From a virus (lineage: Duplodnaviria > Heunggongvirae > Uroviricota > Caudoviricetes): 4,546 nucleotides of DNA. Made by a program: the position numbers and the translations under genes. The first letter of the stretch is position 1, and the number at the start of each line of letters is the position of its first letter. The DNA is taken from IMG/VR virus record IMGVR_UViG_2675903429_000012, one strand, 5' to 3'. The notes under the pieces are model-generated. The model ran no database searches. It had not been told where the DNA came from and was given only the letters and a program-made list of their open reading frames with translations. This document shows positions 3,739 to 4,546 of this stretch, one piece after another.

Positions 3739-4092
3739 GGTCCGTTACCCCCTGAAGCCTGGCGGGATCGCACTGTCCGGCAACGAGACGGTGTTAACCT
3801 GTCGGAGCAACGTCTCAGGCCGAACACCTTTCGGCGCGAACAGGCCCTGGTATTCATTGGCGATGCTGTGTCGAATCACCTGCTCAGGTGTAAAACCCTG
3901 CTGACGGAATTTTTCCAGTTCCCGTATCGCCCCGTTAGCGCCCTGCTCCGTTCGAATCGGTTTTCGCAATGCCTGTCTGAACCGGACCCACTCATGCCAG
4001 AGTGTTTCCGGCAACCAATCGGGCAGCTCAATAGCCTCCGGCTCGAATTTTTTAGACGCTCGTTTTTGGCGAGGGGGAGATCAGTATTTAGA

Positions 4093-4113
4093 TCTTCCTC
4101 TTCCTCTTCCTCT
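4093..4113. repeat. Hexanucleotide tandem repeat (TCTTCC) x3.5, encoding a poly-Glu stretch in the initiator linker frame
   Basis: Direct observation: tcttcctcttcctcttcctct. Confidence 0.8.
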
Positions 4114-4114
4114 G

Positions 4115-4205
4115 GTAACGCTTTTTGATCCGTTTGTGTAACGCTGGCAGCGTTACCTTTTCGTTTCAGTTCGCGTATTTTTGTTACTCGCTCGTTTGTA
4201 ACCGC
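4115..4205. repeat. Iteron-like repeat cluster, candidate phage origin inside the initiator gene: perfect 19-bp palindrome GTAACGCTGGCAGCGTTAC (4138-4156) plus further GTAACGCT / CGTTTGT(G)TAAC(C)GC copies
   Basis: GTAACGCT occurs at 4115-4122 and 4138-4145, and inverted at 4149-4156. CGTTTGTGTAACGC (4131-4144) and CGTTTGTAACCGC (4193-4205) are near-identical. The location mirrors ori-lambda inside the O linker. Confidence 0.3.
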
Positions 4206-4421
4206 CCGTTTTTTTTAGAGCTTTTTCCGTTATGACGTTCAAAGTTAGGTAGAGAAAGCCCTCCGTCATTTTCGACCAGCCATCCAACCTGAATTAACGC
4301 ATCAGCAAAACCAGACATAAAAGTGATGCGATCTATTGCACTTTTTGTAACGCCGCGAGCGTTACAATCTGCATTACCGTCTATCATTTGTTGATCCGCC
4401 CATGCCCAGAAGCGAATAACC

Positions 4422-4546
4422 TGAGGTAGCCTGAGTTTAACGGACACTCCTTCCTGAAATAGAATGGCATCAGAAGGAGCTAATAATGAGCAGAAAAACC
4501 CAACGTTACTCTAAAGAGTTCAAAGCCGAAGCTGTCAGAACGGTTC
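4422..4546 (+). mobile_element. Left end of an IS3-family insertion sequence (possibly IS600-like), partial; the element continues beyond the window
   Basis: A terminal TGAGG... beginning (IS3-family ends start with TG) lies 64 nt upstream of an orfA-type start. The initiator N-terminal homology ends at this junction. The exact boundary is inferred. Confidence 0.55.
4486..4546 (+). CDS. IS3-family transposase OrfA (HTH subunit), N-terminal 20 codons only (MSRKTQRYSKEFKAEAVRTV...), partial at the window edge
   Basis: AAGGAG lies 6 nt upstream of the ATG at 4486. The EFKAEAV motif is typical of IS3-family OrfA N-termini (compare IS911 SAEFKRESA and IS3 SPEFRSEAL from memory). Confidence 0.65.
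   Translation, partial: MSRKTQRYSKEFKAEAVRTV

Follow-up and report, generated by a model that had tools for sequence, protein, structure and literature searches.

The minus strand of positions 3745-4421 carries what we regard, with high confidence, as a true pseudogene, passed on clonally, of a ydaU-type replication initiator; it lies in a cryptic Shigella sonnei prophage that insertion sequences have scrambled. The window (the whole stretch of 4,546 nucleotides of viral DNA analysed here) holds the 3' part of the gene, broken by an IS600 insertion, a change in the length of an A run and a 10-bp deletion. The ydaU-type initiator is the lambda-O analogue of Rac-like lambdoid prophages. The gene remnant and its lesions occupy the following positions of the window:

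3745-4421, minus strand: ydaU-type replication-initiator pseudogene, 3' 677 bp, equal to codons 36-262 plus the stop, over three frames
4422-4546, plus strand: left end of IS600 (IRL, TGAGGTAGCC...) with the start of its orfA (ATG at 4487); the element runs past the window end
4419-4421: one copy of the target-site duplication (ACC on the plus strand, GGT in gene sense, gene nt 105-107)
4209-4216, minus strand: A8 run (T8 on the plus strand), the first frame change, located by alignment to intact alleles
4072-4078, minus strand: remaining copy of the 7-bp direct repeat TCCCCCT, the deletion junction, where the intact sequence is TCCCCCTAAATCCCCCT
4184-4447, minus strand: chimeric 87-aa ORF, made of a GTG and first 8 codons from IS600, then initiator codons 36-104 and a tail reading NGRLQTSE before the stop

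The split gene and its intact relatives

Three-frame translation of the minus strand across 3745-4421 gives, in order, VIRFWAWADQQ...KSSKK, then KKRAVTNERV...EEEEEEDLNTDLP, and finally PRQKRASKKFEPEAIELPDW...IPPGFRG followed by the stop. An earlier note on this DNA had read these frames as a single protein of about 270 aa. The single protein stands, as the relatives carry one intact CDS, but its length is 262 aa, and a peptide quoted as FEPEIAELPDW reads correctly as FEPEAIELPDW. We aligned the remnant to the intact 789-bp genes of Escherichia coli FDAARGOS_944, of COL60J and of the phage Rac record MN652886 (gene labelled ydaU, 93.5% DNA identity to the remnant); DNA identity of the four aligned sequences is 93-98%. 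The region is present by megablast in 1,422 of 5,426 complete E. coli genomes, of which 681 have at least 80% of the query covered; the match falls on a single annotated 789-bp CDS. This match of the remnant to a single CDS indicates that the three-frame pattern is no chance effect. The intact gene, 789 bp and 262 aa long, lies directly 5' of the DnaC-like ydaV, and its CDS is variously named hypothetical protein, 'phage replication initiator YdaU family protein', YdaU or 'DNA replication protein O'. Comparison with relatives, which the earlier note had recommended, uncovered one 789-bp frame and no layout of separate genes among those examined.

When the IS and one GGT are taken out, the A8 run is set to A6 and the 10 bp are put back, a 789-bp gene results that differs from that of E. 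coli FDAARGOS_944 by one synonymous base, the two proteins being identical; besides the lesions, therefore, the gene has changed hardly at all. The simpler repair that had been suggested, one base added to each of two homopolymer runs, also restores the frame, which, with the 5' end added back, then stays open over 783 nt (the sums +2+1 and -10+1 are each divisible by three). The likeness extends well beyond the gene: lesions aside, 6 kb are collinear with, and 99.5-99.6% identical to, the intact prophage of FDAARGOS_944. The gene also sits where an initiator is expected, in the early-right operon, with ydaT and cro-like genes upstream and a DnaC-like loader directly downstream. Its pseudogene status is seen in disruptions relative to these intact orthologues that are repeated across independent assemblies.

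Three lesions and their recurrence in Shigella sonnei

The expected IS3-family end near 4422 is there and starts at exactly that position: 4422-4546 is 100% identical to complete 1264-bp IS600 copies in the S. sonnei assemblies L004-L011, and matches in E. coli genomes are annotated 'IS3-like element IS600 family transposase'. The complete element has TG...CA ends (TGAGGTAGCC... and TGAGGTGTAC...), and it displays the inverted repeats, the 3-bp duplication and the gene order of IS600, an orfA with a helix-turn-helix (HTH; PF01527, L004 9660-9962) and then an overlapping orfB of the DDE type (PF00665 rve, L004 8806-9624). Just the first 20 codons of orfA fall in the window. The other IS end and the 3-bp duplication, which the earlier note had proposed to look for by extending the contig, were found in six S. 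sonnei assemblies, where GGT flanks the 1264-bp element on both sides; the intact gene has a single GGT, and the second flank lies outside the window and was seen in the fetched assemblies. In L004 and five other assemblies the junctions read ...GGGAAGGT-IS600-GGTTATTCGC, and the intact gene reads GGGAAGGTTATTCGC. To judge from these junctions, IS600 went in downstream of gene nt 107 as a simple insertion and made the 3-bp duplication that is typical of its family. Beyond the element the gene's first 107 nt, with codons 1-35, persist and are called as a 41-aa ORF, and the notion that the IS had replaced the first 25-30 codons must be dropped: 35 codons are displaced to its far side and none is replaced.

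Two assemblies have other left flanks. In L009 (GCA_001248565.1) IS600 is preceded by N and then by the DUF1376-type ydaU and ydaV of another prophage (L009 7176-8765, 8763), probably a scaffold join across IS600, while L005 has yet another left flank, which we take as an IS-mediated rearrangement or deletion. We considered both as counter-evidence to a simple insertion and rejected them as such, six other assemblies showing the simple insertion.

The T8 at 4209-4216 and the G5 at 4073-4077, to which two homopolymer frame changes had been assigned, are both present; the assignment holds for the A8 run, but the second lesion is the loss of 10 bp between two 7-bp direct repeats. Intact alleles have either A6 (KK), as do the closest intact relatives, or A9 (KKK), the latter in P0028 (S. 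dysenteriae), in P0002 and in some few contigs labelled S. sonnei too. Comparison of the alleles indicates that A8 arose as either +2 from A6 or -1 from A9. No A8 was found among 132 matches in complete E. coli genomes, the best of which carries A6. At the site of the deletion intact genes read GATCTCCCCCTAAATCCCCCTCGCC and the window GATCTCCCCCTCGCC; the absent sequence is AAATCCCCCT, its loss removes L-N-P and changes the frame a second time, and the G5 run is the surviving repeat copy. Slippage or recombination between the repeats would produce such a deletion. Among 551 matches in complete E. coli genomes the deletion occurs in none, and none exceeds 95% identity over the 73-bp probe.

Both frame changes might have come from homopolymers miscounted in the sequencing or assembly of a draft record, with the IS insertion alone being real, and the earlier note had left this open, pointing to a nearby run of N. 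A 257-N scaffold gap does lie near the lesions, and one of them is an 8-base homopolymer. Nevertheless, the other is a deletion of 10 bp and no homopolymer miscount, and the A8 run and the deletion are found, identical, in eight of eight independent S. sonnei assemblies (L004-L011), which include four contigs of ~4.8 Mb and one of 984 kb; to two of these assemblies the window is 100% identical on either side of the N-run. The exact 87-aa chimeric product, whose end point requires the IS junction and the A8 run together, is called on 492 contigs (481 index blocks), under the names 'putative bacteriophage protein [Shigella sonnei]' and 'FORC11_0721 [Shigella sonnei]'. These exact-protein matches identified the organism. 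An exact scan of genome_contigs for the 30-bp junction had no hit, and the source is therefore not a species-representative genome. Neither frame lesion was found among the 5,426 complete E. coli genomes. Since the lesions recur across assemblies and are absent from E. coli, we conclude that they are inherited in S. sonnei, and we regard sequencing error, weighed here at the level of recurrence across assemblies, as extremely improbable. In the N-run itself (3119-3375), 257 N stand in for a part of ydaV that is 318 bp long in complete S. sonnei genomes; the run is a genuine gap in the scaffold, its size estimated, rather than a length-preserving mask, and is uninformative on the lesions. As S. 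sonnei is clonal, their recurrence reflects inheritance and is no sign of selection.

Transcriptional slippage can occur at long A runs. The length of this run is polymorphic among alleles (A6, A8, A9), and one might see in the remnant separate natural small genes, or a gene with programmed frameshifting or with transcriptional slippage at its A run, instead of a pseudogene. We give this practically no credence: the intact relatives examined have one continuous frame, the complete E. coli genomes have neither frame lesion, the repaired protein is identical to an intact E. coli allele, and slippage at A8 would leave the 10-bp deletion and the IS insertion unrepaired. A frameshift programmed at the A run, or phase variation there, was rejected on the same ground, that two further lesions remain.

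Domain layout, palindromes and a candidate origin

Within and around the pseudogene four further features bear on what the intact protein may have done:

3748-4026, minus strand: remnant of a DnaT-like C-terminal domain, aa 170-262 of the intact protein, ending ...NTVSLPDSAIPPGFRG
4093-4113, minus strand: hexanucleotide tandem repeat GAGGAA (gene sense) in the poly-Glu linker (TRF period 6, 3.5 copies)
4138-4156: linker-region palindrome of 19 bp, GTAACGC-N5-GCGTTAC, that may be an origin or a binding site of the initiator
4347-4365: second 19-bp palindrome GTAACGC-N5-GCGTTAC, in the region coding for the N-domain

The intact or repaired protein is a full-length match to PHROG 2509 'replication initiation protein' (aa 1-262 against profile 1-277, E 1.2e-89), in keeping with the initiator type first proposed for the gene, and also hits PHROG 678 'replication initiation O-like' at E 7e-26; other initiator PHROGs match its N- and C-terminal halves separately. 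Initiator function for YdaU-type proteins is putative, drawn from PHROG and PGAP annotation, synteny and domain homology, and a literature search for experimental work on YdaU function found none. The layout is an N-terminal domain common to other phage 'replication initiation' families, followed by a charged poly-Glu linker and the DnaT-like domain. The last of these, likewise suggested earlier, is recovered by phmmer against the PDB, with aa 170-262 matching DnaT 92-179 (2RU8, E 9.5e-5; 9ZBT chain D, E 3.2e-4); the alignment of the last 93 residues with the DnaT C-terminal domain runs from one end to the other and takes in the terminal NTVS-PDS-IPPGFRG. The likeness is one of domain: against the NCBIfam whole-protein DnaT model (NF002770) the protein scores 16.2 bits, a sub-threshold hit of 19 residues with a cut-off of 201.

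A DUF1376-like N-domain, which the earlier note had also entertained, did not hold up. A Pfam scan of the intact protein and both fragments returned no family at E<=1, and the 285-aa DUF1376-type YdaU of another S. sonnei prophage (in L009), 81% identical over the C-terminal 124 aa (aa 139-262), shows no BLASTP similarity outside them. We therefore rejected DUF1376 (PF07120) for this N-domain, which is a module-swapped allele, presumably with a different origin specificity.

The module is like the Rac YdaU-YdaV module (oriJ) in its operon order of repressor, cro-like gene, ydaT, ydaU and ydaV, and Rac has been described with an active origin, oriJ (PMC3945230). It differs from the Rac/K-12-type DUF1376 YdaU in its N-domain, unrelated by BLASTP and free of Pfam hits, and in that the gene here is dead. 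With lambda O/P it shares a two-domain initiator directly followed by a helicase-loader gene and, as with the lambda origin within O, repeated symmetric sites in and beside the initiator gene. The loader here, however, is a DnaC/IstB-type ATPase instead of lambda P, the C-terminal domain is DnaT-like, and the palindromes of this predicted origin do not form a tight iteron array but are spaced by ~200 bp. With DnaT of E. coli replication restart it has the C-terminal domain in common, and ydaU-ydaV parallels the dnaT-dnaC operon, whereas the N-terminal domain and linker are unrelated and a phage initiator stands in place of a restart factor.

The hexamer repeat of the linker varies among the S. 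sonnei assemblies, with 3 units in the window, L004, L005 and L009, 6 in L006-L008 and L010, and 7 in L011 (~10320-10370 in L006-L008, L010 and L011). Its number also differs among intact alleles, of 261, 262, 264 and 266 aa; the GAGGAA array is a small VNTR that is still changing within the dead gene.

The two palindromes in the window compare with an expectation of 0.00. A third perfect copy lies 14-32 bp 5' of the intact start codon (L004 8624-8642; L001 4848-4866), the three copies overall standing against 0.00-0.04 expected. Also in the linker region are a GTTAC-N10-GTAAC pair, a half site and three GATC sites. We propose the palindromes as candidate origin or operator sites; in S. sonnei, IS600 parts the first of them from the other two. 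The C-terminal domain of DnaT assembles into a filament on the ssDNA of the lagging strand ahead of the recruitment of DnaB/DnaC, and the genes dnaT and dnaC follow each other, in this order, in a single operon (PMC13377028). By analogy, the N-domain of the intact protein would bind the GTAACGC-N5-GCGTTAC palindromes that lie within its own gene and immediately before it, and would open an origin there, the DnaT-like domain would coat the opened strand, and this ssDNA would be handed to DnaB via the DnaC-like YdaV, which would bring DnaB in. IS600 cuts off the promoter, the start codon and codons 1-35 from the rest of the gene, and we infer that the prophage can no longer start its own replication.

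Could what is left of the gene still do something? The apparent GTG start at 4447 of the 87-aa ORF lies inside the IS600 terminus, as the earlier note had recognized, with zero spacing between an AAGGAG motif and the GTG; the IS600 end has an inward promoter-like site at 4437-4465, and a search of that end for an outward one found none. A remnant product (the 87-aa N-domain fragment or the DnaT-like ORF at 3745-4014) might have been co-opted, for instance as a dominant-negative origin binder interfering with superinfecting Rac-like phages, or the locus might be kept for ydaV, hok/sok and queH. The chimeric ORF is indeed unchanged across hundreds of assemblies, and ydaV, DUF977, queH and hok/sok downstream are still intact. 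We nonetheless consider co-option very unlikely: retention carries no weight in the clonal S. sonnei, the GTG has no properly spaced ribosome-binding site, the IS end offers no outward promoter-like site, the fragment is without codons 1-35 and the entire C-terminal half, and the hexamer repeat drifts freely in copy number. It would likewise be a long shot that the 87-aa fragment is made, binds the palindromes and blocks Rac-like phages of like origin specificity, or that the split origin acts as a binding sink; if either were true, the locus would be an exapted defence element and no debris.

Decay of the surrounding prophage

The pseudogene reading agrees with the state of the prophage around it, in which two further features of the window are:

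3109-3738, minus strand: ydaV, a DnaC/IstB-like ATPase gene (PF01695, PF00308) starting 7 nt past the initiator stop, with N at 3119-3375
1-102, plus strand: right end (IRR) of a second IS600 in direct orientation, 100% identical to the IS600 end, truncating a DUF1367 gene

In complete S. sonnei assemblies ydaV is intact, with 248 aa. Another S. sonnei prophage has a second ydaV copy, 93% identical (L009 7776-8402), which may be why the assembly broke at the N-run. Further along lies a hok/sok module that looks intact, in which the antisense RNA sok (Rfam RF01794, 117 bits) and the hok/mok toxin ORF overlap (1135-1310 and 985-1197, both minus strand); queH and the DUF977 gene are also still open.

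Two IS600 copies in direct orientation bound the window. The second (L004 14407-15670) has no target duplication, its flanks being AAT and GTT, and therefore marks a rearrangement or deletion junction; it joins the nin region to an integrase fragment beside modC. We rejected the window as a composite transposon: the ydaU-site IS600 has its own GGT duplication, and hence inserted alone, and the other copy has none. A third, partial IS600 lies further upstream, and the lysis region is interrupted by IS2-like and IS110-family elements. All six S. sonnei assemblies that hold the segment also have a 1-bp deletion at about codon 13 of ydaT (L004 8194, upstream of IS600), an additional lesion within the same operon as the initiator. 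Elsewhere, one complete E. coli genome has the same ydaU-type gene independently truncated to 68 aa (protein P0012, locus tag I6J79_05370), the break falling inside the second palindrome (…NARGV|ALLNKSDFG); other lineages have thus disrupted this gene too.

IS600, a driver of gene loss, is one of five insertion sequences expanded in all Shigella species, and pseudogenes make up at least 5% of Shigella CDS (PMC7373316). The loss of the initiator is ordinary IS-driven prophage decay, matching such published accounts of Shigella, and next to other IS600 pseudogenes of the genus nothing is unusual here save the two small extra lesions in one gene. Its significance beyond annotation is little: the 87-aa ORF, the 41-aa ORF upstream of the IS and an 89-aa ORF are fragments of one gene and are due a pseudogene label, and the hexamer repeat could be a minor typing marker. 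The three palindromes suggest, as a guess that can be tested, where the origin or operator sites of this Rac-like replication module may lie. For S. sonnei, the defective prophage that the earlier note had envisaged is borne out, a cryptic prophage that lost its initiator by three separate, independent hits while hok/sok, queH and ydaV stay intact.
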